Assembly (NCBI GenBank): GCA_944392275.1
Contig: CALXWA010000004.1
Span: forward strand, 93,408 to 157,407
Source of the DNA: an uncultured Alphaproteobacteria bacterium
Lineage (GTDB): Bacteria > Pseudomonadota > Alphaproteobacteria > RF32 > CAG-239
DNA length: 64,000 nucleotides
Direction: 5' to 3'
Below, piece by piece: positions 2,784 to 61,062 of this stretch. The notes beneath the pieces are model-generated. The model was not told where the DNA came from and did not search any database. It saw only the letters and a list, made by a program, of their open reading frames with translations. The translations under genes were made by a program, and so were the position numbers. The first letter of the stretch is position 1, and the number at the start of each line of letters is the position of its first letter.

Positions 2784-3539
2784 ATGGCAGAAATTTTAAA
2801 CTTAAATATGTACCATTTTTTGATGGTCTTTTTACGTTTAGGCTCGGCATTTATGTTAATGCCGGGTTTTATGACTTCTTTTATCAACACGCAAGTCCGA
2901 CTATCGATTGCTCTTGCCCTCAGCATTATTTTAATGCCCTTAATTAGCACGCACCTGCCTCCGGCACCTCAAGATACGGCAACTTTTATTACATATACCT
3001 TAAGCGAAATCACAATTGGAATTTTCTTAGGTTTGGTTATGCAATTTTTGTATTTTTCCCTTCGTTTTGCAGCCAACCTGGCCGGACAAGCCATCGGTTT
3101 TTCCAATGCTCAAATTTTTGATCCCAGCTTTCAAAGCCAAACCATCGTTTTAGAAAGTTTCTTAAGTATGGTCACCCTCACGGTTATCTTTATAACCGAT
3201 ATCCACCACTTAATGCTTGGTGCCGTCATAGACAGTTATCATCTCTTTCCGGTCGGACAAAACCTTCCGTGGGGAGATTTTTCAGACAACTTATCCCAAA
3301 ATTTAAACAAAGCCTTTGTCATGGGCTTTAAGCTGGGTTCACCTTTTGTTGCCTTTACCATCATTTTTTATGTCGGAATGGGCTTGGTATCACGTCTGAT
3401 GCCGCAATTGAATATATTTTTTCTGTCTCTGCCCTTACAAATTTATTTAGGCTTAGGATTAGTTTTTATCACAACTCCAATCATGGTAATGTGGTTTATC
3501 AAATACTATGAAGACGGAATACAACAATTTTTGCATTAG
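2784..3539 (+). CDS. fliR: flagellar export apparatus protein FliR
   Basis: 251-aa polytopic membrane protein located between fliQ and flhB. Confidence 0.85.
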   Translation: MAEILNLNMYHFLMVFLRLGSAFMLMPGFMTSFINTQVRLSIALALSIILMPLISTHLPPAPQDTATFITYTLSEITIGIFLGLVMQFLYFSLRFAANLAGQAIGFSNAQIFDPSFQSQTIVLESFLSMVTLTVIFITDIHHLMLGAVIDSYHLFPVGQNLPWGDFSDNLSQNLNKAFVMGFKLGSPFVAFTIIFYVGMGLVSRLMPQLNIFFLSLPLQIYLGLGLVFITTPIMVMWFIKYYEDGIQQFLH

Positions 3540-3551
3540 CAACGGAGGACC

Positions 3552-4625
3552 ATGGTAGCACCGGAAGATGATGACGAATCCTCCAAAACGGAAGAGCCGT
3601 CGGAACGAAAAATAAGCAAAGCCAAAGAAGAAGGCGATGTTGCGATCTCGCAAGAAGCCAAAAGCTTTATTATGCTTTTGGGAATGTTGTTTGTGGTCTG
3701 GCTGGTCATTCCGCTGATTTTTCGGTGGTATTATCTAATGTCCGTACGCTTTATTGAAAGCCCGGGACAAATGAGCATCAGCGTACCAGAATTTCAATTG
3801 TTATTAAAACAAGTTTTTTTGGGCATTCTGAAGCTAATGGGGATTCCGTTTGCTCTGTTTATGGTTTTGGGAATTTTCGCCAGCATTGCCCAAACCGGAT
3901 TTATATATGCCCCGCAAAAGCTCCTCCCCAACTGGAACAAGCTCAATATTTTTGCGGCCATACCCAATTTCATCAACATGAAAAAAATTGTGGAAAGCTT
4001 AAAAGGGATTATCAAAATAACCGTGATTAGCATCATTGCCGTTTTGGTTATTCGTCCCTATCTGGAAAAGGCAAATTTATTGCCCACCATGGAAAGTATA
4101 TCGATTCTTCAGTTCATTCACAAAGCGGTAACGATTCTTTTGTTTACGGTTGTTTTGGCGGTTTTGGTCTTAGCCGTTTTGGATTTTGCTTACCAAAAAT
4201 ACATGCACTTAAAAAAACTCCGCATGACCAAACAAGAGGTAAAAGAAGAATACAAACAAATGGAAGGGGATCCTCTGGTAAAGTCAAAAATCCGCCAAAT
4301 CCGTATGGAAAGAGCACGCCACCGCATGATGGAAAATGTCCCCAAGGCAGATGTTGTTATTGTCAACCCGACCCATTATGCAGTAGCTTTAGAATATAAG
4401 ATGGAAACAATGGATGCTCCGAAAGTAACCGCCAAAGGAATAGATAACGTGGCACTTCGTATTAAAGCTTTAGCGGAAGAACACGATGTTCCGATTGTAG
4501 AAAATCCGCCTTTGGCAAGAGCTCTGTTCGCCTCCACCGAACTAGACCAAACCATCCCGCAAGAACACTTTAAAGCCGTCGCAGAGGTAATTGGATATGT
4601 TATGCAGCTCAAAAATCAGCAATAG
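3552..4625 (+). CDS. flhB: flagellar export switch protein FlhB
   Basis: 357 aa with N-terminal TM segments. The NPTH autocleavage motif is present (VNPTHYAVAL), followed by a conserved C-terminal domain. Confidence 0.9.
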   Translation: MVAPEDDDESSKTEEPSERKISKAKEEGDVAISQEAKSFIMLLGMLFVVWLVIPLIFRWYYLMSVRFIESPGQMSISVPEFQLLLKQVFLGILKLMGIPFALFMVLGIFASIAQTGFIYAPQKLLPNWNKLNIFAAIPNFINMKKIVESLKGIIKITVISIIAVLVIRPYLEKANLLPTMESISILQFIHKAVTILLFTVVLAVLVLAVLDFAYQKYMHLKKLRMTKQEVKEEYKQMEGDPLVKSKIRQIRMERARHRMMENVPKADVVIVNPTHYAVALEYKMETMDAPKVTAKGIDNVALRIKALAEEHDVPIVENPPLARALFASTELDQTIPQEHFKAVAEVIGYVMQLKNQQ

Positions 4626-22733: not shown

Positions 22734-23051
22734 ATGTCTGATGATGATAATAAAACAACACAATCAAAAAACAATCCGGATTTGGACTTTTCCCCAGATT
22801 ATGCGGTTGCTCTCGGGTATGATAAAGAAAAAAACGCTGCGCCGACCGTTCTGGCAAAAGGATCCGGACATGTTGCGGAACGTATTGTACAATTGGCTCT
22901 AGACAACGACATTACCATCCATCAAGATGCCGATTTATTACAAATCTTAAAAGCCGTAGATATTGATGAGGAAATTCCGGTAGAAGCATTTGCCGCCGTT
23001 GCAGAAATTATTTCATATATTTATCAACAAAACGGAAAAAACATTAATTAA
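22734..23051 (+). CDS. stand-alone FlhB C-terminal-domain-like protein (FhlB/YlqH type)
   Basis: Sequence YAVALGYDKEKNAAPTVLAKGSGHVAERIVQLALDNDITIHQDADL matches the FlhB C-domain, but SPDY replaces NPTH. ATG at 22734. Confidence 0.75.
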   Translation: MSDDDNKTTQSKNNPDLDFSPDYAVALGYDKEKNAAPTVLAKGSGHVAERIVQLALDNDITIHQDADLLQILKAVDIDEEIPVEAFAAVAEIISYIYQQNGKNIN

Positions 23052-23089
23052 AAAAAAAGACCATGTATACACACATGGTCTTTTTTTTT
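23051..23089. terminator. bidirectional rho-independent terminator
   Basis: A8-GACCATGT-ATACAC-ACATGGTC-T9, lying between convergent genes. Confidence 0.8.
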
Positions 23090-23690
23090 ACATCACAAAA
23101 CGTTCATCATCAGGCATCGCCAAATAAGTCCCGCAAAAGAAACCTCCCAAACAAAGCTTCTCACTTTCCAAATAACCGGAAACAACATCCACGTAAAAAA
23201 CATCTAGTTTAGAAACCCCAATCAACCACATTAACTGTTCCTGATCCAAAACCGTTTTTTTCAGAGGAATTAAATTAGGGTAACACTCTTCTTTTTTTAA
23301 GGGACATTTATCCTTTGCAAGCCTAAAAGCTTCGGAATAAGAACAAAACCTGGAGTGCCTTGCCTTAATTTCTTCATGCTTTTTGCTATAATAAAACAAC
23401 CCGGTAGAACACTTAAAAAAGCCTTCTTTTTGTAAGATTCTTACCAAATTTTTATCCTCTTTGGTAATTTCGGAATAAAAAGCAAGCTTTTCTTTTTCCA
23501 ACGGGGTTGCCTTAACATTTTCCCCGCCTAAGCGATAGGCCGTATAAAAATTGTTGTCTTTTTCCAACAAGATATATTCCGGACAATCGTACCAAATAAC
23601 AGGAACAACATTTTTCTCGCTCTCTTTATTAAACCAGGGAATTTTTTGCGAAAAAAGCTCTATTGCTCTCGCTTTGCTTAGTTTTTTCAT
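23088..23690 (-). CDS. hypothetical protein (200 aa), no recognisable motif
   Basis: Long ORF with codon usage like its neighbours. I recognised no family. Confidence 0.5.
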   Translation of the reverse strand: MKKLSKARAIELFSQKIPWFNKESEKNVVPVIWYDCPEYILLEKDNNFYTAYRLGGENVKATPLEKEKLAFYSEITKEDKNLVRILQKEGFFKCSTGLFYYSKKHEEIKARHSRFCSYSEAFRLAKDKCPLKKEECYPNLIPLKKTVLDQEQLMWLIGVSKLDVFYVDVVSGYLESEKLCLGGFFCGTYLAMPDDERFVM

Positions 23691-49923: not shown

Positions 49924-51090
49924 TTAGTTATCCTTTAAAAAGTTTCTGGCATTTTTAATTTTATTTTTATAAATATTTTTCTTTTGCTTATATTTACTAT
50001 GCTTTTTACCCCAAGATAATTTAGTTAATAGCTTGTATTTTAAATATTTGATGTAATTGTTTTTATAATTAAGTACATCTTTGATATTAGGCAAAAAGAG
50101 GGGGATATCTTGTTTCGTTTGAATCGTCGGCTGATTTAACAAAACGTTTCTATAAATTATTTCCTCATAGAATGGGGTTTGTCTGGCATATTGCCAAAAA
50201 CATTCTGCTAAAATTTGATTAGGTCTTATCCATGGTTTTTGTCGACCTGTTAAATGAAGTACACAGGGACCTTCTTCTCTTGCTTTTAAATATTCTCTAT
50301 ACATAACATCTGGGATGTTTCCCGCTAAATAGTCTGTCTTTTGTACATGATATACATGATTCCACTTTAAATCAATAAATCCCACATAGTTATAAAATAC
50401 AGAATTCAAAATATCTTGATCGACATAAACAGGATGTTTTACTTCTTTTAGGCGTTCTATGCATTTTGAAAGCATATCAAATTTTTTTAATTTGTTAATA
50501 TCCATAATCATCATTCCTGCTTGAAAATAACGATTAGGATTTTTTATTTTTAAGATATCTGCTAAATATTTATCAAAAGATAAAGACCAACCATCTACAG
50601 GTTGTTTTAGAGAACAATCATTAATAACCTGTATATCTGGAGTTGTTAAAATATAGTTTTGTTTCATATCCATTGTAAACAATGGAGAAATATCTTTGCA
50701 AACAACCAAATCGCAATCCAAATATAAGGCTCTTGTGTATTGATAAAAAATTTCAGGAATAAAGAATCTGTAATATGTTGCCATCGAAAATTGTGCTCGC
50801 ACATAAAATAATTTTTTGTACCGCTCAGCAAATTCTTTCATATTAAAAAAACGCACAGCAATATTTTTTCGTTGAGCACATAAATTTGAGATTAATTTTT
50901 TATTATTATCCGTAATATTATCTTCAAGAATAACTATATCATAATTATATTTCGGATTTTGGTTAGCTATTATTGACTGTACACATACACCTAAATAAAG
51001 AGCATAATTATTATCTGAAGACATAATGATCAAATTATCACTCTTAAAAAGTGGTTTCAATTGTTTCACATCTTGTATTGTATTGAACAT
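49924..51090 (-). CDS. glycosyltransferase family 8
   Basis: Motifs SDNNYALY, LYLDCDLVV, FQAGMMIMD, DQDILN and HLTGRQKPW. Confidence 0.85.
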   Translation of the reverse strand: MFNTIQDVKQLKPLFKSDNLIIMSSDNNYALYLGVCVQSIIANQNPKYNYDIVILEDNITDNNKKLISNLCAQRKNIAVRFFNMKEFAERYKKLFYVRAQFSMATYYRFFIPEIFYQYTRALYLDCDLVVCKDISPLFTMDMKQNYILTTPDIQVINDCSLKQPVDGWSLSFDKYLADILKIKNPNRYFQAGMMIMDINKLKKFDMLSKCIERLKEVKHPVYVDQDILNSVFYNYVGFIDLKWNHVYHVQKTDYLAGNIPDVMYREYLKAREEGPCVLHLTGRQKPWIRPNQILAECFWQYARQTPFYEEIIYRNVLLNQPTIQTKQDIPLFLPNIKDVLNYKNNYIKYLKYKLLTKLSWGKKHSKYKQKKNIYKNKIKNARNFLKDN

Positions 51091-51101
51091 TGTCTATCCT
51101 C

Positions 51102-53657
51102 CTATTTAAATAAATTCTCGTATATTTCTTCTTTTAAAAATGGTAATTTTTTAACAGCGGAGGCATTAATAACCTGTTTTTTTTGCGTTTTTAAAAAATT
51201 ACTTCCAAATTTCAACCCATCATACATCCGTTGTTGATTATAGACGGAATGTCGAGCTCGATTTTCTTCCTCCTTTGTAGAAGTATAAGCATGTGCTTCT
51301 TTTGTTTTAAAATCCAAATCGACACCAATTAAATAGATTTTCTTAAAGCCTAAATAAGCCATAATTTGCAATGCATAAACAATGACCGTACATCCACAAT
51401 AAAGTGGCTTACATAAATCCGTTTGAAATCCATTGGATGCAGGATTAACAGACCTATCATACGTATCAAAAAAAATGGGGGTTTCTATCACATTCACACA
51501 ATCTATTGCGGATCTAAAGAAATAAGTATCAGAAAAATTAGCATCCAATTCTGTACATGATTCTGCATAACCAAAAATATCACCAAAAACATGGAAGGTG
51601 GAATGTTTTAATCCCTTTTCGACCAATTTATATCCTTTTCCGACTGTACATGTATATTCGTTATTTAATTTTGTTAAATCTAGTTGATTTAAGGAAGGTG
51701 AGCCACCGATAATAAAACACCTTTTCCCCTTATATTTATCTTTTAATTTTCGAATTGCTGCAATATTTTGAGGCAACTGAGCGGTCGTTGTATATTTAAC
51801 AGTCCAAAAATAAAGAGGGATTCCAAAAAGTTTGAAAATTCGATAAATTCCTTTTTTCTTAATACTGAAAAAGAGCAAATTAATTTTTGTATTTGTTTTT
51901 TTCCCAATACGAACACCTAAGAAATATAAAATGCTCTTTTCTGGTGTTTTACGAATTTTTGCTATTCTAATTCCTAAAAGCCAGAATATTTTGCTTTCCA
52001 ATGTCTTTTTGACAGTAAAAAACGGAACACCCAATAACCTCAATGCTGACTTTTTAGAATTACTACCTATGTCTTTCTTACTATGGTAATTTATTATTTT
52101 TATTCCTAACAAAGACAAATAAATTCTTTTTTCTTTTGAATTAGAGGCTTTTACAAAAAACTTATTGAACGTTATTTTCGTATAAAATTTAATTTCTTTT
52201 TTAATAAAATTCACTACATTTTGTGCATATCTAATAGCCTCTTTTGTTTGATTTAATTGAGGATTATACCAGCCTGTATCATCTTTATAAGGGGAACGAA
52301 TATTACAATAAATTATGTTAGTATTTAATCCTTTTAATCTATTCCATTGATCAATAACTACTAAATAAAATTGCTTTTTTCCTCTTTTTATTTTTAGTAG
52401 TTCATAAAGTTCATTAATTAATGTGGGATTAGATGAAGCTTTTAATATAAAGAACAGTGCTTTTTTCGAAGATAACGCAATTTTAAAATGTGTAATTCTC
52501 TCATCCAGTCTTTGCTTGAATTTATTAAAATCATTACCGCAATCTCTATCCTTATTATAGAATAAACCTAATGATTCATTGATAAAATATCCACGTTTTT
52601 CATCAAAATGCATATCTTGATAAATGGAACTGAAATTATTTTTTAAAACAGCAACAACTCCTGCTAATGTAGAGTAACAATTATCAAATGGCATATAATT
52701 ATCTTGAGAAATGTTATATATTTTCGACGCGTTTAAGTAGTCTTGAATCATCTCATCACAGCCTAAAGATATAACGCCCACTCCTTGCGAATACAGATTC
52801 TTATCACTAATAAAATCTTTAGCAATCATCATTTGGGATTTTTCAGCCCAAGGGGTCATTTGTAAGTATTTTAAATATTCTTTTTTATAAGGATGCACAG
52901 AATCAATATTCCAAGGCTTGTCAGGTCCTACAAAATGAACAATTACTGGATTTTTAACCGCATTTGCATAATCTTTATCTTCCATAGGTTGTTTTCCACC
53001 ATAAGATTCAAAATGAAATTTATGATACATATTCCATTTATAGCTGATTATTTTGATTTTATCATGGAAACAGTAATTAATAAAATCTTGATCTCCTGTT
53101 TTTGCCTCTATTTTTCCAATTTGTTTCAGCATTTTTTTGAAGTAATCATGTTTTCTAAGTTCTGTACAATTAATAATAATTACACCAGCATTTATATATT
53201 CATATTTTTGATCATAGCCATGCTTTTTTACCAATCCCTTAGAATTTGCATCTTTTACCCCAGCAAAATAATACCCTGATACATCTATATTATTCATATC
53301 TGAAATGTCAGATAAAACTACCAAATCGGAATCAATATAAATCATTTTATCCAATTTTGGAAAGAGCATTGGAATTAACAATCGATTAAAAGTAGCCAAA
53401 GTCAAATGAGGATGCATCTTAACGGCTTTAAAGGGAGCTAAACTGTTCTCATCTAATTTGGGATAATCAATTTGACAATCTTTGATTTTTTTTAATTTAT
53501 CAAATTTTAGTTTATTCTCATTGCTGAGCTGCATTGATAAGATATAAAAATGGTATTTATCTTTACGCTTTGCATTTGATAAAATAGATGCTACAACAGT
53601 TGCTGTATGTTGAATATAATTATCATCAGTTGATAAACAAATGTTTATTTCTTTCAT
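51102..53657 (-). CDS. multidomain protein: GT8 + unknown middle region + tandem LLGI repeats + DUF115/Maf-like C-terminal domain
   Basis: N-terminal GT8 motifs (TDDNYIQH, IYIDSDLVV, NAGVIIIN, GDQDFIN, HFVGPDKPW). Five to six degenerate repeats of about 18 aa at aa 511-618. The C-terminal part, KGKRCFIIGGSPSLN..IYLIGVDL, resembles DUF115. Confidence 0.7.
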   Translation of the reverse strand: MKEINICLSTDDNYIQHTATVVASILSNAKRKDKYHFYILSMQLSNENKLKFDKLKKIKDCQIDYPKLDENSLAPFKAVKMHPHLTLATFNRLLIPMLFPKLDKMIYIDSDLVVLSDISDMNNIDVSGYYFAGVKDANSKGLVKKHGYDQKYEYINAGVIIINCTELRKHDYFKKMLKQIGKIEAKTGDQDFINYCFHDKIKIISYKWNMYHKFHFESYGGKQPMEDKDYANAVKNPVIVHFVGPDKPWNIDSVHPYKKEYLKYLQMTPWAEKSQMMIAKDFISDKNLYSQGVGVISLGCDEMIQDYLNASKIYNISQDNYMPFDNCYSTLAGVVAVLKNNFSSIYQDMHFDEKRGYFINESLGLFYNKDRDCGNDFNKFKQRLDERITHFKIALSSKKALFFILKASSNPTLINELYELLKIKRGKKQFYLVVIDQWNRLKGLNTNIIYCNIRSPYKDDTGWYNPQLNQTKEAIRYAQNVVNFIKKEIKFYTKITFNKFFVKASNSKEKRIYLSLLGIKIINYHSKKDIGSNSKKSALRLLGVPFFTVKKTLESKIFWLLGIRIAKIRKTPEKSILYFLGVRIGKKTNTKINLLFFSIKKKGIYRIFKLFGIPLYFWTVKYTTTAQLPQNIAAIRKLKDKYKGKRCFIIGGSPSLNQLDLTKLNNEYTCTVGKGYKLVEKGLKHSTFHVFGDIFGYAESCTELDANFSDTYFFRSAIDCVNVIETPIFFDTYDRSVNPASNGFQTDLCKPLYCGCTVIVYALQIMAYLGFKKIYLIGVDLDFKTKEAHAYTSTKEEENRARHSVYNQQRMYDGLKFGSNFLKTQKKQVINASAVKKLPFLKEEIYENLFK

Positions 53658-54625
53658 TAATATCTCCTATTTAATTCCCAATTCCAAGCGGTTTGGATGA
53701 TGTCTTTGATGTTGGTATATTTAGGCTCCCAACCCAAAATTTCTTTTGCTTTGGTATTGTTGGCAAAAAGTCTTGCAGGATCGCCAGCTCTGCGAGGAGC
53801 ATATTCAACTGGACATTTTTTGCCGGATACTTCTTCTGCTGCAGAGATAATGTCTTTTACAGAGGTTCCGATACCTGTTCCCAAATTAATACATCCGTTA
53901 TAGCTTCCGAGTTTTTCAAGTGCTAAACGATGTGCTAAAGCAAGATCTTCAACGTGAATATAGTCACGAATACAAGTGCCATCTGGAGTATCATAATCAG
54001 TACCAAACACTTTAATATTATCTCTTTCTCCTGTAATCGCTTTTAATACTAATGGAATCAAATGTGTTTCCGGCGTATGGCATTCACCAATTTTGCCATC
54101 TTCCGAACATCCGGCTGCATTAAAATAGCGCAAAGCAATATGCTGCAAGCCGTAAGCTCGTGCATAATCAGCAAAAATTTGCTCGATCATCAACTTTGTG
54201 CGGCCATATGGGTTAATCGGATTCTGCGGGTGTTTTTCATCAATCGGGGTATATTGCGGCTCGCCATAGGTTGCACATGTACTGGAAAAAACAATTTTTT
54301 TCACATTATGCGCCAACATAGCATGAAGTAAATTAACCGTGCCGATAACATTATTGTAGTAATATTTCTCAGGCTCATTAACACTCTCTCCGACATAGGC
54401 AAATGCCGCAAAATGAATCACATCATCAATCCTATTGTTTTTAAACAGGTTATCCAAAGAATATGGATCTAACAAGTCTGCGTGAACAAACTTGGCACGC
54501 TCATCAACTGCCTCACGATGCCCATAAATCAAATTATCTGCAACAACAACTTCATAATCGTTATCCAGTAAATGTCTGACTGTATGTGAGCCAATATAAC
54601 CGGCTCCACCCATCACTAATATCAT
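53657..54625 (-). CDS. galE: UDP-glucose 4-epimerase
   Basis: Motifs GGAGYIGSH, the YGRTK catalytic motif and SDR extended-family features. Confidence 0.9.
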   Translation of the reverse strand: MILVMGGAGYIGSHTVRHLLDNDYEVVVADNLIYGHREAVDERAKFVHADLLDPYSLDNLFKNNRIDDVIHFAAFAYVGESVNEPEKYYYNNVIGTVNLLHAMLAHNVKKIVFSSTCATYGEPQYTPIDEKHPQNPINPYGRTKLMIEQIFADYARAYGLQHIALRYFNAAGCSEDGKIGECHTPETHLIPLVLKAITGERDNIKVFGTDYDTPDGTCIRDYIHVEDLALAHRLALEKLGSYNGCINLGTGIGTSVKDIISAAEEVSGKKCPVEYAPRRAGDPARLFANNTKAKEILGWEPKYTNIKDIIQTAWNWELNRRY

Positions 54626-55959
54626 GCAACCTCCCGCAGACGATTTTCTTTCATTTCTGTATTTTTTCCGATTCCCTGATACTTAAATCCACTTTGTAAG
54701 ACTGCTTCGGAGTCCAGCAAATTACGGCAATCAACAATATTTTTATGTCGCATCAAAGTCGCGGCTAAATCCAAATCCAAAGACTTAAATTCATTCCACT
54801 CCGTTAAAATAGCCAACACATCGGCATCTTTTATGCACGCATACATATCATCGGCATAGCTGATTTTATCGCCAACCAACTGACAAGCCGTTCCCATCGC
54901 CTTCGGGTCATAAGCCGTAATATTTGCTTTATGCTCTAGCAAATTATACACAATTTCCATTGCCGGACTTTCACGGCAATCATCGGTGCCGTCTTTGAAC
55001 GCCAAGCCCAAAACCGCAATTTTCGGATTCTCAATCCCTTTAACGGCTTCTAAAATCCGATCTGCCATTTGTTGTTTGCGCTTGGTATTCCCGGCAATAG
55101 CGGCGTTAATCAATGTCATGTCAACATCATTCTGGCGAGCCATGTATGACATTGCCATCGTATCTTTCGGGAAGCAACTTCCACCGTACCCAGGACCCGG
55201 ATTTAAGAATCTGTTACCGATACGGCTGTCTAAGCCCATACCTTTAGCAACTTCAGTAATATCCGCACCTGTTTTCTCGCAAAAGTTTGCCATTTCATTA
55301 ATATAATGAATTTTGATAGCTAAAAAGGCATTGGATGCATATTTAATTGTTTCACTTGAACGACGTTTCACAAACAACATTTGAGTTTTACCCTCAAAAG
55401 GCTTGTATAATTCTTTAATCACATTGCGGGCTTTTTCGGTGTTAGCTCCAACAACAATGCGGTCCGGATGGAAAAAGTCATGAACAGCAAAACCTTCGCG
55501 CAAAAATTCCGGCAAAGAAACAACATCAAAATCCGCAAACGGGTTTTTCTTAGAGATTAACGCTTCAATATCGTCACCCGTTCCAACAGGAACTGTTGAC
55601 TTTGTTGCAATAACCGTATAACCCTGCAAATATTCTGCCAATTCTGTTGCGGCGGCGTGAATATATTTCATATCCGCCTCTTTCGTGACCGGATGTGGCG
55701 GTGTCCCGACAGCGATAATGACTAAATCTGCATTTTCAACACCTTCTTTCATCGAGGTGGTAAATTTAATCCGTCCGGCTTTAACATTTTTATGGAATAA
55801 TTCTTCCAAGCCATCTTCATAAAGTGTAATTTTGCCGGCTTTTAAGGCATCAATTTTCTTTGGTTCTCTGTCAATACAAACAACTTCATTTCCAAGTTCA
55901 GCCAAACCGACACCCGTTGGTAATCCGACATATCCTGTACCAATAATTCCTACTTTCAT
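54622..55959 (-). CDS. ugd: UDP-glucose 6-dehydrogenase
   Basis: Motifs GTGYVGLPTG and GGSCFPKD (catalytic Cys). ATG at 55959. Confidence 0.92.
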   Translation of the reverse strand: MKVGIIGTGYVGLPTGVGLAELGNEVVCIDREPKKIDALKAGKITLYEDGLEELFHKNVKAGRIKFTTSMKEGVENADLVIIAVGTPPHPVTKEADMKYIHAAATELAEYLQGYTVIATKSTVPVGTGDDIEALISKKNPFADFDVVSLPEFLREGFAVHDFFHPDRIVVGANTEKARNVIKELYKPFEGKTQMLFVKRRSSETIKYASNAFLAIKIHYINEMANFCEKTGADITEVAKGMGLDSRIGNRFLNPGPGYGGSCFPKDTMAMSYMARQNDVDMTLINAAIAGNTKRKQQMADRILEAVKGIENPKIAVLGLAFKDGTDDCRESPAMEIVYNLLEHKANITAYDPKAMGTACQLVGDKISYADDMYACIKDADVLAILTEWNEFKSLDLDLAATLMRHKNIVDCRNLLDSEAVLQSGFKYQGIGKNTEMKENRLREVA

Positions 55960-55960
55960 C

Positions 55961-56926
55961 TTATGCAACCTTTTTAAACTGATCTATTTGTGTTTTGAAA
56001 TATGCGATTGTTTTATCCAAACCCTCATCGAGCTTGATTTTCGGCTCCCAATCAAGTTTGGTTTTTGCCAAAGTAATATCCGGTCTTCTTTGTGTCGGGT
56101 CATCTGACGGTAAATCTTTGTAAACAACCTTTGAACTGCCTCCGACTTTAGAGACAACCATTTCCGCTAATTCTTTAATCGTAAATTCCCCTGGGTTGCC
56201 GATATTAACCGGTCCGGTAAATGCTTTCTCCGAATTCATCATACGGATTAACACTTCAATCAAATCATCAACATAACAGAATGAGCGTGTTTGATGTCCA
56301 TCACCATAAATCGTTATATCTTGCCCGGATAGGGCTTGACAGATAAAGTTTGAAACCACACGCCCGTCATTCGGGTCCATATTCGGACCATAGGTATTAA
56401 AAATACGAACCACTTTAATATCAACGCCCTCATGACGGTGATAATCAAAGAACAAACTCTCTGCACAACGCTTACCCTCATCATAACAAGCTCTGATACC
56501 AATTGGATTGACATTTCCGCGATAACTTTCAACTTGAGGATGCACCAAGGGCTCACCGTATATTTCAGAAGTTGAGGTTTGTAGAATGGTTGCATGATGC
56601 AGTTTTGCTAAATCAAGCATATTAATTGCCCCTAAGACGCAAGTCTTTGTGGTCTTAATGGAATAACTTCCCTGATATGCCGGAGGAGAGGCTGGGCAAG
56701 CCATGTTATAAATCTGGTCGATCTTCTCATCATTTATCTCTAACAGATCACAAATATCATGTTCAATAAAGAGAAAATTAGGATGATTGACAATACTTTC
56801 AATATTACTCAATCTGCCAGTGTAGTTGTTATCTACACAAATAACTCTATTTCCTTCATTTATTAAGCGAATACACAAATTGGAACCTAAAAAACCTGTT
56901 CCTCCAGTTACTAATATAGTTTTCAT
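55961..56926 (-). CDS. UDP-glucuronate decarboxylase (UDP-xylose synthase type)
   Basis: Motifs [18 protein letters not shown] and the RIFNTYGP pattern of UXS/ArnA-C enzymes. Its ATGA overlaps the GT2 stop. Confidence 0.85.
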
Positions 56927-57924
56927 AAAATACCTCTTGTTACAAAATAAAAAATTCTCCATCTCAGTTTGAGCCTAAAAATTTTACTCAATTTAGAGTT
57001 CATTAGTCTCCATTGTCCTGGAATTGTGCGTGTTCTATGGAAGTGTTTTTTGAATTTTTTCTTAAAAAAATACATTAAATCCTTTTTGGGATATCCCTTG
57101 GATATAAGCGAATCTAAAATTGGTCCAATTCTGTCTTCCAACTCTTTTAGCTCGTCTCGACTAAAAGGGGTCCCCATAAAAAACTTTGACCATAAATTGA
57201 TATTTTCAAATTTGATATTGCAGTACTTCTGAAATGCGCATATTTGCGCCAAACCTCCTTTCTCACGTTGAATATCACGTTGAGTATGAGAAATATTAGC
57301 TAAATGATAACGATACGTTGTTAATTTTTCGGGTAAAATTGCAAATTTTGTATGACCAACCATATCCAACCAAAACCCGTAATCCTCTGCGGGAACATAC
57401 TCGTTTTTATAACGAATGTTGTTTTTTTCGATAACTGATTTTCTAATCATCACACTTGATTGACAAAAGACACAACCATTGAATATTAAATTTGATTCAA
57501 TCTCAAAATGAGTTTTATATGGAATAAAATTTACATCCTTTGCATCATCACCTATAGCATCGACAGCTGTACCTAGACATCCGATTTCAGGATTGCTCAT
57601 GAAAAAAGCTATCTGTTTTTCAAATCTATCTTTTTTTGAAAAATCGTCAGAGTCTAAAAAAGCTATATAATCACCTACAGCTCTTTCAATAGCGTAGTTC
57701 CTTGCTATGGCTGCGCCAGAATTCTTATTAAGCCTAAAATATTTAATTCGGGTATCGTTATATGAAAAAACAATATCTTTTATATAAAAGTCAGAAAAGT
57801 CATCAACTATAAGGAGTTCGAAATCAGCATAAGATTGTGAAAGAATACTAGAAATAGCCTCACGAAAGAATTCTTCCTTTGTGTTATAGACAGGCATCAC
57901 AACGGATATGTTAGATTTCGACAT
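56923..57924 (-). CDS. glycosyltransferase family 2 (first gene of the operon)
   Basis: Motifs [14 protein letters not shown] and [14 protein letters not shown]. Confidence 0.85.
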
Positions 57925-57991
57925 AGCAAGCCTGTTTAATCCTTTCTATTTGTTACAATCAAAACTTTTCCACCTTTATCTGTTACGAAAA

Positions 57992-58132
57992 CGGTGGTTT
58001 TTAGGACAAATCAATAAAAAACCTTGTATTTAAGGCGTTTGATACTTGGAAAACAAGGCTCTCTGAGGCAAAACTACCCTAAGTTTTTACAAGCCCTTAA
58101 TTTAAGGGTTTTTTATGTCCTAAAAACCACCG
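57992..58132. promoter_or_regulatory. candidate invertible DNA switch (16-bp perfect inverted repeats flanking 109 bp)
   Basis: CGGTGGTTTTTAGGAC (57992-58007) and GTCCTAAAAACCACCG (58117-58132). The switch lies between the invertase stop (58225) and the GT2 start (57924). Confidence 0.6.
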
Positions 58133-58224
58133 ATTTTTCTACAGAAAATTAAAAAAATTGTTGCTTTATTTTTTTGAATAGTGTATGCTGTTTCTAATTC
58201 ACCGTCTAGAAACCACACAGTATT

Positions 58225-58845
58225 TTATTGCTTTTTGCTAATGTATTCTTGAAGATTGTGTACTTTTAGAAAAGTATAAATTAGGCTTCTCTCGATGCCC
58301 AACATTTTTGCTATTTGTGTCTTTGGCACGTTCTTTTCCAGTAGGCCTACAAGTTGTTTATTCTTCCCATCTAATTTACGCTTCATAGTACGAAAACCAT
58401 GTGGCCTCCCAAGATGTTTTCCGTCAGCTTTTATCCTAGCTAGAGCTTCTTTTGTCCTCTGGCTAATTAAGTTTCTCTCAATTTCAGCTGAAAGTCCAAA
58501 AGCAAAGGCGAGAACCTTACTTTGTATGTCTGTCCCGAGGCGATAATTATCTTTAATAGTCCAAACTTGTACTTCATTTTTCATACAGTGGTGGAGAATA
58601 CTCATAATTTGCAATAGATTTCTACCTAATCTTGAAATTTCTGAAGCAATTAGGACATCGCCTTTCTTTAGTCTTTTTAGTAGTGAACCCAGTTTCCTTT
58701 TTTCTACAGACACTGTTCCGGACACTGTTTCCTCAATCCATCTGTCGATCCGTATATTTTCTCTACCAACAAAGTTTTCTATTTCAAATCGTTGATTTTC
58801 AACGGTCTGTTTGTCTGTACTGACACGTATATATCCATATATCAT
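58225..58845 (-). CDS. small serine recombinase (Hin/Gin invertase or resolvase type)
   Basis: N-terminus MIYGYIRVSTDKQ (catalytic Ser), SRLGRN, and a C-terminal HTH (TQIAKMLGIERSLIYTFLK). ATG at 58845. Confidence 0.88.
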   Translation of the reverse strand: MIYGYIRVSTDKQTVENQRFEIENFVGRENIRIDRWIEETVSGTVSVEKRKLGSLLKRLKKGDVLIASEISRLGRNLLQIMSILHHCMKNEVQVWTIKDNYRLGTDIQSKVLAFAFGLSAEIERNLISQRTKEALARIKADGKHLGRPHGFRTMKRKLDGKNKQLVGLLEKNVPKTQIAKMLGIERSLIYTFLKVHNLQEYISKKQ

Positions 58846-58861
58846 TTTAATACCTTTCAAT

Positions 58862-58891
58862 AAAAAATCCCTGTAGTTTTACCACAGGGAT
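58862..58891 (-). terminator. rho-independent terminator
   Basis: On the minus strand, TCCCTGT-loop-ACAGGGA is followed by T6. Confidence 0.65.
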
Positions 58892-58982
58892 TTATAAAAA
58901 AAATGCCCTATATGCCATTTTGCACCGTCTGTTTCAGCCTGCGAAACAACAGCTTGTAATCTTTCTTCCATATTTGCCATTT

Positions 58983-59407: not shown

Positions 59408-60004
59408 TTATAGCATAACCCTCTGTGGTCGGGTAAATTTTACGACTTCTGCTTCTTCCTGATTTATAATAAGCTTCTTTTCTTTTATATCATATCCTAA
59501 TGGAGCCGGACCACCGGTCCACATTCCTTTTTTCTTACTAGCCGCAATTTTATCACGTACGCGCTCAGCTCCAAGTTCACGCTCAAATTGTGCAAATGAC
59601 AACAGGATGTTTAATGTTAGCTTGCCCATGGAATCGCAAGTATTAAAATGCTGTGTGACAGATACAAAAGAGCAATTATTCTTTTCAAAGGTCTGTACTA
59701 ACTGTGCAAAATCAAGAAGTGAACGTGTTAAACGGTCTATCTTATAGACAACGATCATGTCCACTTTGCCTTTCTCAACGTCTGCCATCAATCTTTTTAA
59801 TGCAGGTCTTTTAAGGTTACCACCGCTAAAGCCTCCATCATCATAATGATCGGGCAGAATCACCCAACCTTGATGCTTCATACTCATTACGAAGTTTTCC
59901 CCGGCCTCACGTTGGGCTTCAAGTGTGTTGAATTCTTTTTCAAGACCTTCATCAGTTGATTTGCGGGTATAAATTGCGCATCGTATTTGTTTTTGCTCTT
60001 CCAT
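59408..60004 (-). pseudogene. large serine recombinase, truncated after the catalytic domain
   Basis: Motifs CAIYTRKSTDEG, VYKIDRLTRS and GGPAPLGYDIKEKKLIINQEEAEVV are typical of the N-terminal third of large serine integrases. The ORF stops at 198 aa, and no recombinase or zinc-ribbon domain follows. Confidence 0.55.
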
Positions 60005-60015
60005 GGTTTATTCCT

Positions 60016-60414
60016 TTATTTATCTAATCCAAAAAAGTAACGTCCAGAGATTTTTCGACCGGTAATTTTTTTTGCCACCGCTGACAGGCTGGAATACTTC
60101 ATACCGTTATATTCAAAGCCATCTTTCATAACTGTAACAACGTTTTCAACTCCCAAATACTCCCTAACAATTCTTGTGCCGGCAGGTGGTAGGTTATTTC
60201 TATCCTCTGGTGGTACGTACATGTTCGCTATCAACTTCTGCTGATTTGCACTTAAACCACCATAGGCAAGTTCCTGTATGCGGTGTGCAATCCTGGAAAT
60301 GTAGAACTCCTTATTATAAGTAGTAGGGGGAGCATCAAAGTATTTTTTCCATATTTCTTGCAGTTCTGATATTGAGCGTCTTTCTAAAAGTGCTATTTGC
60401 ATTGATACTTGCAT
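60016..60414 (-). CDS. DUF2924-domain protein (usual partner of large serine recombinases)
   Basis: Motifs LQEIWKKYFDAPP, RIAHRIQELAYGGL, GTRIVREYLG and YSSLSAVAKKITGRKISGRYFFGL. Confidence 0.7.
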   Translation of the reverse strand: MQVSMQIALLERRSISELQEIWKKYFDAPPTTYNKEFYISRIAHRIQELAYGGLSANQQKLIANMYVPPEDRNNLPPAGTRIVREYLGVENVVTVMKDGFEYNGMKYSSLSAVAKKITGRKISGRYFFGLDK

Positions 60415-60585
60415 TGAGAGCCTCCATCTTCTTCAAACTCTTGTTCTTGATCACGTTCACAATACATGCTTGGAAACAAAATATTATCCAGTCTTTTCTG
60501 CGCAATAATGCCACTTTTTTTCATCTTTAAATAACGGAGTAAATCCGGCATTATAATTTTAATTATTTTTTCAGCTTGGGTCATT
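60393..60585 (-). CDS. small hypothetical protein (64 aa)
   Basis: ATG at 60585 is preceded by GGAGG. I recognised no family. Confidence 0.4.
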
Positions 60586-60985
60586 TGGACCTCCTTTCGA
60601 AAGGTAAATTCCCAAAAATCGAAAAACGGTCTCAAAAAAATTAAAAAAAATAACGTGGTCGGTATATCTATTTGATTTTTAATGATAAAATATACTTGGC
60701 TGGTATTCCCTGTGTGAGTGTGGTCATTGGATGTGAACTAATGCAGGTATACCTAAATATGTAAATTAAGTAAATTCAATTAAAATAGGACTACGTGGGC
60801 AAAATTAAACCGCCAAGTAGTCGGTGTATGCTTATTCTAAAAAGGTATACTTCCGGTCTTATATTTAATGCATTGACAACGTAGTATAAGAAAATTTTGA
60901 AAGAGGCAATAGTGGCTAGAACTGGGCTACAAAAGGGTATAAAAAAAGCGGACACTTTTCAGTATCCGTTTTTAATTTTTTTCAT

Positions 60986-61062
60986 TGGTCGGATTGACTG
61001 GACTCGAACCAGCGACCTCTTCGTCCCGAACGAAGCGTTCTACCAGGCTGAACTACAATCCG
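60986..61062 (-). tRNA. tRNA-Pro (anticodon CGG)
   Basis: Folded by hand into a 77-nt cloverleaf: acceptor CGGATTG/CAATCCG, D stem GTTC/GAAC, anticodon stem CTTCG/CGAAG with loop TTCGGGA, T arm GCTGG-TTCGAGT-CCAGT, and an encoded CCA. Confidence 0.9.

Follow-up and report, generated by a model that had tools for sequence, protein, structure and literature searches.

Within a 64-kb stretch of DNA from an uncultured Alphaproteobacteria bacterium (contig CALXWA010000004.1; the whole stretch is referred to here as the window), a gap of 300 bp lies between the start of a GT2 glycosyltransferase gene (57924), the first of a minus-strand operon of ten surface-glycan genes, and a small serine DNA invertase gene (58225..58845, minus strand). 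These positions had been given correctly in the original prediction, made from the sequence of the window, which regarded the gap as a simple invertible promoter. Three short crossover sites, named S1, S2 and S3, were identified in this gap, bounding two non-coding modules, X and Y, which occur in four arrangements in nature. The gap is a three-site, two-module, four-state inversion switch, in which a promoter-like element within module X (P_X) would probably act as the main promoter of the operon.

Crossover sites and natural arrangements

The site nearest to the operon, S3, spans 57981..58008 with its core CGGTG at 57992-57996. S2, between modules Y and X, spans 58116..58143 (core CACCG, 58128-58132), and S1, nearest to the invertase gene and lying by its stop codon, spans 58188..58215 (core CACCG, 58200-58204). 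The CGGTG core is the only sequence common to the three sites, with S1 and S3 having just 5-6 bp in common, and in the related lineage L254 the S3 core reads CACAG with the central AC/GT preserved. Each site forms an imperfect dyad whose center is the GT of CGGTG and whose half-sites are rich in A and in T (in S3, GAAAACG-GT-GGTTTTT). S1 is the most divergent of them and has a dyad of its own, GTTTCTA-N10-TAGAAAC. Judging from these sequences, crossover most likely takes place at the central GT (proposed to be 57994-57995 in S3), the exact cleavage position being indistinguishable within the shared core. The distances from center to center are 72, 135 and 207 bp.

With the gap read in the sense of the invertase gene, state A was defined as S1, X, S2, Y in orientation a and S3, state B as A with Y alone flipped, and state C as A with the entire S1-S3 block flipped. 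The interior of module Y (58009..58115, 107 bp) is the segment that had been proposed earlier to invert. It flips alone, between A and B and between C and D (the fourth state, below), by way of S2 and S3, or of S1 and S2 once the block has been inverted. Module X (58133..58199; core-to-core length 72 bp) is inverted jointly with Y through S1 and S3, between A and C and between B and D; states C and D need exchange at S1.

An exact look-up of the invertase protein gave ten contigs, derived from different metagenome samples and all carrying the gene beside the same GT2 gene. Their 300-bp gaps fall into three arrangements, namely state A (L007, as in the window), state B (L003, L004 and L006) and state C (L001, L002, L005 and L008-L010). 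Three arrangements imply three CGGTG-core sites and predict a fourth state, D. This state was found three times (L163, L166 and L254), on contigs carrying variants of the invertase with 95 and 86% identity. In a further contig (L168, 755-985), X has been precisely deleted between two directly repeated sites so that S1-Y-S3 remains; with the conserved promoter-like element gone, this variant may represent a locked state. A census of 36 classifiable three-site contigs, which took in contigs from other metagenome samples with identical and 86-95% identical invertases, gave eight in state A (including the window), 13 in B, 11 in C, three in D and one with X deleted.

These arrangements were matched by inversion of the window in silico at the core centers. 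The predicted state B is identical to L003 and L004 (300/300), the predicted state C to L001, L002 and L010 (300/300), and the unaltered window (state A) to L007 (300/300). When the same procedure was applied to the P9 lineage, whose invertase is 95% identical, states B and C were matched at 232/232, D at 225-227/232 and the deletion of X at 230/232. The S1 core is the exact end point of two contigs (L160 and L161), and another (L159) stops just after S2, such breaks being expected where a sample holds mixed orientations. An artefact of assembly was ruled out, as the shared core of 5-6 bp and the 17-bp repeat described below are shorter than typical assembler k-mers and the junctions match prediction exactly. 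It is close to certain that the rearrangements arose by site-specific inversion at S1, S2 and S3, and we infer that switching is ongoing within populations. The earlier claim that the segment is invertible was borne out, as both orientations occur between otherwise identical flanks in independent metagenome assemblies. The description of the locus as an inverton holds as far as the flipping is concerned but not as a simple two-site system, given the third site S1, the second module X and the four states.

Module Y is bracketed by a perfect 17-bp inverted repeat, CGGTGGTTTTTAGGACA at 57992-58008 with its reverse complement at 58116-58132. Its left arm is the inner half-site of S3 (GGTTTTTAGGACA) and its right arm the inner half-site of S2. 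The repeat had been reported as 16 bp around a segment of 109 bp; it is present, but its arms match perfectly over 17 bp and are separated by 107 bp. An imperfect extension brings it to 33 bp, at 82% complementarity. When the window was simulated 100 times with a first-order Markov model, no run gave a perfect inverted repeat of 17 bp or more inside 300 bp. Only one other repeat of this kind exists in the real window, a tight hairpin at 23049-23074 (in the interval 23049-23098) between convergent/adjacent open reading frames (ORFs), which is probably a terminator. The 17-mer of the repeat has no other match in the window when up to three mismatches are allowed. A scan of a metagenome collection with the 17-mer gave 25 contigs with one isolated match each, the arms never being paired, so that these matches are attributed to chance and that collection lacks the locus. 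An Rfam search of 57700-58400 returned chance-level matches only, caused by the inverted repeat.

No further sites of the CGGTG type were found in the window or in approximately 300 kb of related flanks, the remaining genome not having been searched. A possible fourth site, GACGGTG (58923-58929, minus strand), upstream of the invertase gene, was dismissed as a chance occurrence, being missing from the other upstream contexts. In no contig was the invertase gene itself inverted. Three more distant invertase lineages, P0075 (73% identity), P0063 (78%) and L012 (78%), are without sites of the CGGTG type, which indicates that this system of sites is confined to a clade of at least 84% identity. 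In P0063 a convergent Fic gene follows the invertase.

The promoter-like element P_X and the role of module Y

P_X (58151..58189, plus strand) is composed of an A-tract (58151-58157), a -35 hexamer TTGCTT (58161-58166), a spacer of 17 nt and a -10 hexamer TATGCT (58184-58189). In the window it reads toward the 3' end of the invertase gene, away from the operon, and in states C and D it is located directly upstream of S3 and the GT2 gene. Six lineages, distinguished by invertase identity, were compared: that of the window, P9 (95%), L255 (91%), P0029/P0020 (88-89%), L254 (86%) and L011 (84%). All six have the A-tract, TTGNTT, a spacer of N17 (N16 in L254) and TATGYT, followed by a GTTTYTA half-site. 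In the alignments the A-tract, TTG-TT and TGTATG-TGTTT-TA are invariant and the spacer sequence varies. No other promoter-like element is conserved across the six lineages. Two of them, L255 and P0029/P0020, have two-site systems of approximately 185-200 bp in which Y is missing and P_X is kept, the other DNA of the segment being unrelated to Y; P_X faces the cargo in 13 of 21 two-site contigs and faces away from it in the other eight. Over the invertase stop codon, a hairpin reaches significance in P9 (z = -3.8) and in L011 (z = -2.8); the T-run that follows it is oriented such that it would end transcripts from an away-facing P_X. Consensus promoter scans of the window, L128, L011 and L119 returned nothing above shuffle expectation in either X or Y, so it is on conservation that the promoter assignment is based. 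On this basis the balance of probability leans toward P_X being the operon promoter, and states C and D would then be ON.

In the mechanism proposed, the Mpi-family invertase would recombine three hix-like sites around CGGTG. Exchange between S3 and S2 would flip the 107-bp module Y, and exchange between S3 and S1 would flip Y together with the 72-bp module X, after which S1 and S2 could flip Y again, to give a four-state cycle A-B-D-C-A. Rare recombination between directly repeated sites would delete X. In states C and D, P_X would read from directly upstream of S3 into the GT2 gene and the operon would be ON, and in states A and B it would read toward the 3' end of the invertase gene and the operon would be OFF. 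In this lineage, Y in orientation b (states B and C) would also present a terminator hairpin that blocks read-through toward the operon, and in orientation a (states A and D) a weak promoter in Y may face the operon.

Homologous Y modules, alignable with that of the window, occur in the P9, L011 and L254 lineages, and in all four of these lineages Y is accompanied by the extra site S2 and a perfect repeat of 17-18 bp. The promoter candidate put forward previously, TTGTTT-N17-TTAAAT (58028..58056, minus strand), is situated in this module and faces the operon in the state of the window. Its hexamers are present, but they match the consensus at just 7 of 12 positions, were not reported by the scan, and have lost the -35 in L172 (CTGTTT) and in the P9 lineage (TATATT); TTGTTT with a TTAAAT-like -10 is also found in L011 and L254. 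The terminator that had been proposed to oppose it, the hairpin AAGCCCTTAATTTAAGGGTTT followed by a T-run (58091..58116, plus strand), was matched by the scan and is significant (-9.1 kcal/mol, z = -3.3). In the state of the window it is directed away from the operon. This hairpin belongs to the window type of Y only, including that of L254, where its stem is kept, and is missing from the Y modules of P9 and L011, so a terminator swap was rejected as a general feature of Y.

From these data we infer that Y is an accessory cassette. In the lineage of the window it could, depending on its orientation, terminate transcripts that read through from the invertase side, and it may also serve as a weak second promoter. 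The present orientation had been called ON. With P_X facing away from the operon and the promoter candidate in Y weak and not conserved, this was not upheld, and the window, being in state A, is more likely to be OFF or weakly ON.

A number of observations weigh against P_X as the main promoter and against the switch as described. P_X matches the sigma-70 consensus at 7-8 of 12 positions, below the threshold of the scan, and promoter-like matches in AT-rich regions are no commoner than in shuffled sequence. The conserved TATGYT-GTTT block partly overlaps the outer edge of the recombinase half-site, so some of its conservation could reflect the binding of protein rather than promoter function. 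In the window itself, the hairpin over the invertase stop codon is degenerate and not significant (-1.5 kcal/mol). The interval between the invertase start codon and a strong hairpin upstream of it (58865-58893, described below) appears too short to hold a promoter. S2 and Y have been kept in four lineages even though the hairpin in Y is lineage-specific; the maintenance of S2 with its perfect 17-18-bp repeat implies that inversion of Y is selected, which the model centered on P_X does not fully explain. Finally, the evidence on orientation comes from comparison between samples and not from reads within one sample.

Three other explanations were weighed against this model. The original prediction amounts to a two-site inverton in which Y carries the operon promoter and an opposing terminator and the window is ON. 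Much of what it draws on is real, including the inverted repeat, both orientations of Y, the hexamers and the significant hairpin in the lineage of the window, and the similar hexamers in L011 and L254. However, the third site and second module are in use in 14 of the 36 contigs (states C and D), the 7/12 promoter fails the scan, and the P9 lineage, in which as in L172 the -35 is lost, nevertheless displays all four states. Together with the two-site relatives that lack Y entirely and have retained P_X, this makes the explanation quite improbable. It is more improbable still that the arrangements are old fixed polymorphisms of strains, or that a phage-derived invertase is active here without effect on the operon. 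The comparisons being between samples, the frequency of this invertase family on phages and at prophage ends, and the failure of any promoter to pass the consensus threshold would all fit such an explanation. It sits badly with flanks that are identical between states (300/300), with four states that recur in lineages whose invertases are 86-95% identical, with contigs that break exactly at the sites, and with a switch that is always upstream of, and co-oriented with, a variable cargo.

An explanation of greater weight than these two, though still unlikely, is a two-bit rheostat with a promoter in each module, such that no promoter faces the operon in state B, P_Y (the candidate in Y) faces it in A, P_X in C, and both in D. 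That all four states occur in nature, that S2 and Y have been maintained in four lineages with a perfect repeat of 17-18 bp, and that three of the four lineages with Y have a P_Y-like sequence would be accounted for in this way; the weakness of P_Y, its lack of conservation in the P9 lineage and the rarity of state D (3 of 36) speak against it. A bolder proposal goes beyond the model centered on P_X and is offered tentatively, as doubtful: a single cis-encoded Mpi-family invertase would run a two-bit switch with four heritable levels of glycan expression, the unit being portable, phage-derived and plugged before different cargos in gut Alphaproteobacteria. If the two-bit reading were true, two adjacent small cassettes (72 and 107 bp), both with regulatory content of their own, would be permuted through three sites.

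The invertase, its cargo and genomic context

The enzyme (206 aa) was identified as a small serine DNA invertase of the Mpi family by profile matches and by alignment to Gin. It possesses the Pfam Resolvase domain (PF00239, residues 7-148, 8e-34) and scores 317 bits against the NCBIfam model NF009949 (master DNA invertase Mpi family serine-type recombinase), whose equivalog cut-off is 272, with residues 1-199 aligned to profile positions 1-199 of 203. Relatives at 72-73% identity carry the Mpi-family name given by NCBI. The best match among solved structures is the Gin invertase (4m6f), the alignment of residues 1-190 taking in the C-terminal domain, and the motif YIRVSTDKQ of the N-terminal catalytic domain aligns to the catalytic-serine motif of Gin. 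The earlier description of the protein as a small serine recombinase of the Hin/Gin type is consistent with this structural match, its family by profile being Mpi.

The closest matches in genomes are in metagenome-assembled genomes (MAGs) of uncultured gut and rumen Alphaproteobacteria, with 84 and 78% identity. At 60-70% identity the family extends to Bacteroidota, Firmicutes and others, and it is common on viral contigs and at prophage ends. As the invertase gene always adjoins the switch while its upstream context and downstream cargo vary, it is highly likely that this enzyme catalyzes the inversions. On the visible evidence it acts locally, unlike the global Mpi of Bacteroides fragilis.

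The strong hairpin with a T-run mentioned above (58865..58893, minus strand) was detected by scan. It has a stem of 13 bp and lies approximately 20 nt upstream of the invertase start codon. It is retained in the different contexts, and one of its base pairs has changed in a compensatory manner between lineages. Read-through may be the only source of invertase expression, or this hairpin may have a regulatory role. The unit shared between contigs begins at this hairpin and T-run, approximately 70 nt upstream of the start codon, and the hairpin, invertase and switch together form a portable unit, often found at a prophage end. The unit is preceded in some contigs by island remnants (the case in the window) and in others by tail genes of a lambda-like prophage together with an HU-like gene. 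This HU-like gene (Bac_DNA_binding / HU-HIG) is directly upstream of the invertase in most of the other contexts (L005, L006, L008, L126-L131, L154-L166 and L254-L256) and is not present there in the window. A dedicated DNA-bending partner for inversions of 72-135 bp is conceivable.

On one contig (L132, 3151-3249) a scaffold gap of approximately 100 N separates an Mpi-family invertase of 73% identity from another GT2 operon, and is flanked by the motifs CTAACGAAC and CTAACGTTC. This gap is probably a different inverton, of the Bacteroides type, that broke the assembly. L254 has pairs of ORFs of 82 and 137 aa on both sides of its invertase (374-1001 and 2917-3586), after a GpJ-like tail gene; their likeness being by ORF sizes only, they may be duplicated phage genes.

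The operon directly downstream of the switch (44747..57924, minus strand) comprises ten genes, in agreement with what had been predicted. Genes 1-4 encode a TuaG-like GT2, a dehydratase/UXS-like enzyme, a UDP-glucose 6-dehydrogenase and GalE, and genes 5-10 a GT8 with an MptE-like part, a GT8, a methyltransferase, a further GT8, an MsbA-like ABC exporter and a protein of 217 aa without assigned function. The three GT8 enzymes are similar to alpha-galactosyltransferases of lipopolysaccharide (LPS), and the gene set as a whole indicates a surface glycan of the LPS or lipooligosaccharide (LOS) type. The ninth gene (45397-47142) scores 537 bits against the MsbA model, just below the equivalog cut-off of 602 bits, and suggests export of a lipid-linked glycan. 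The GC content is 29-32% over 46000-54000, in the middle of the operon, compared with approximately 40% elsewhere.

Beyond the first four genes of the operon the gene content differs between contigs. Two GT2-led glycan operons were found as cargo, as well as a multi-helix-turn-helix (multi-HTH) protein followed by other genes. In every case the switch is immediately upstream and the first gene of the cargo is co-oriented, starting 60-90 bp after S3. The multi-HTH cargo is that of the two-site lineages (L116-L125, L144-L153 and L255), where a protein of 340-396 aa with repeated HTH motifs is encoded at a prophage end; it has weak matches to Cbp1-like and transposase HTH models.

The alphaproteobacterial background noted previously was supported by a CckA-type cell-cycle kinase in the window and by the closest genomes. 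The island setting was likewise supported, the context being variable between contigs, island- or prophage-like, and beside a tRNA-Pro (CGG) gene (60986-61062). Next to this tRNA gene, within 59408-60635, is a second ORF with a resolvase domain (198 aa), preceded by a DUF2924 gene and an ORF of 80 aa. The 198-aa product has its closest similarity to the N-terminal part of large serine recombinases (CcrB, for example), and these genes look like the remnant of an integrative element or of a prophage integrase. This second resolvase-domain ORF was rejected as the enzyme of the switch, as it is missing from other contexts in which the switch shows all states. Beyond the distal end of the operon are a gene for an autotransporter of 998 aa with polymorphic-outer-membrane-protein repeats (40013-43009) and a Y-family DNA polymerase gene (43496-44728).

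Comparison with known inversion systems

Immune recognition, sensitivity to phages and persistence of gut bacteria are influenced by phase-variable surface glycans, which are well studied in Bacteroides. Full-text literature searches returned no description of a system of the present kind, or of phase-variable surface glycans in uncultured gut Alphaproteobacteria. The locus indicates that an Mpi-family enzyme can serve as a local, cis-linked switch, that three sites within 230 bp can yield four states, all of them seen in nature, and that invertase and switch are transferred together, as one cassette, between prophage ends and loci for glycans. The inversion of segments as short as 72-135 bp raises questions of DNA bending and accessory proteins. 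There is also a caution for programs that find invertons from single pairs of repeats. The long perfect repeat here marks the accessory module, and the proposed flip of the main promoter uses a partner site with only 5-6 bp in common.

In B. fragilis, Mpi is a single global invertase for seven of the eight capsular polysaccharide (CPS) promoters (PMC12632263). The present system resembles that of Mpi and the PSA-PSH promoters in that the enzymes belong to the same NCBIfam equivalog family, non-coding segments of approximately 0.1-0.2 kb flanked by repeats flip immediately upstream of surface-polysaccharide operons, and the organism is a host-associated one of the gut. It differs in that the invertase gene directly adjoins its target, in having three sites, two modules and four states where each B. 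fragilis promoter has one pair of repeats, and in its CGGTG/hix-like sites, its alphaproteobacterial host and its nature as a portable module often at a prophage end.

With Hin (Salmonella fljBA), Gin, Cin and Pin the system has in common a small serine invertase, here with Gin as its best structural match, and imperfect-dyad sites with a 2-bp core identical in partner sites, as was found for S1-S3. The halves of the S sites (...AAAAC-S and GGTTTTT... on either side of the central dinucleotide) are similar to those of hixL. As with Hin, the orientation of a promoter is proposed, from sequence, to control a surface antigen, and as in the Hin and Gin systems phage tail regions and HU-type proteins are associated with the invertase. 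Hin acts on 26-bp sites around a segment of approximately 1 kb that contains its own gene and needs an enhancer bound by Fis, and HU aids the formation of small loops in that system (PMC3798978). Here, by contrast, the segments are 72-207 bp rather than of kilobase scale, the invertase gene lies outside them, no enhancer was recognized from the sequence, and the protein falls in the Mpi family and not that of Hin.

The use of one recombinase on more than two sites, with nested and overlapping inversions, several isomers and occasional deletions between directly repeated sites, is shared with Min of plasmid p15B and the Rci shufflon of R64. What is rearranged there is coding DNA of tail-fiber or pilus-tip genes, on a scale of kilobases, and the Rci enzyme is a tyrosine recombinase, whereas here two tiny non-coding regulatory modules are permuted before a fixed operon. 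The known part of the present system is that it works like the Mpi-controlled polysaccharide promoters and Hin/fljBA, a likeness that the original prediction had correctly drawn although it had seen only the accessory half of the switch. What is new above all is the combination of three sites and two modules to give four naturally observed states, and the further differences are the cis-linked invertase, the hix-like CGGTG sites, the very short modules and the alphaproteobacterial host.

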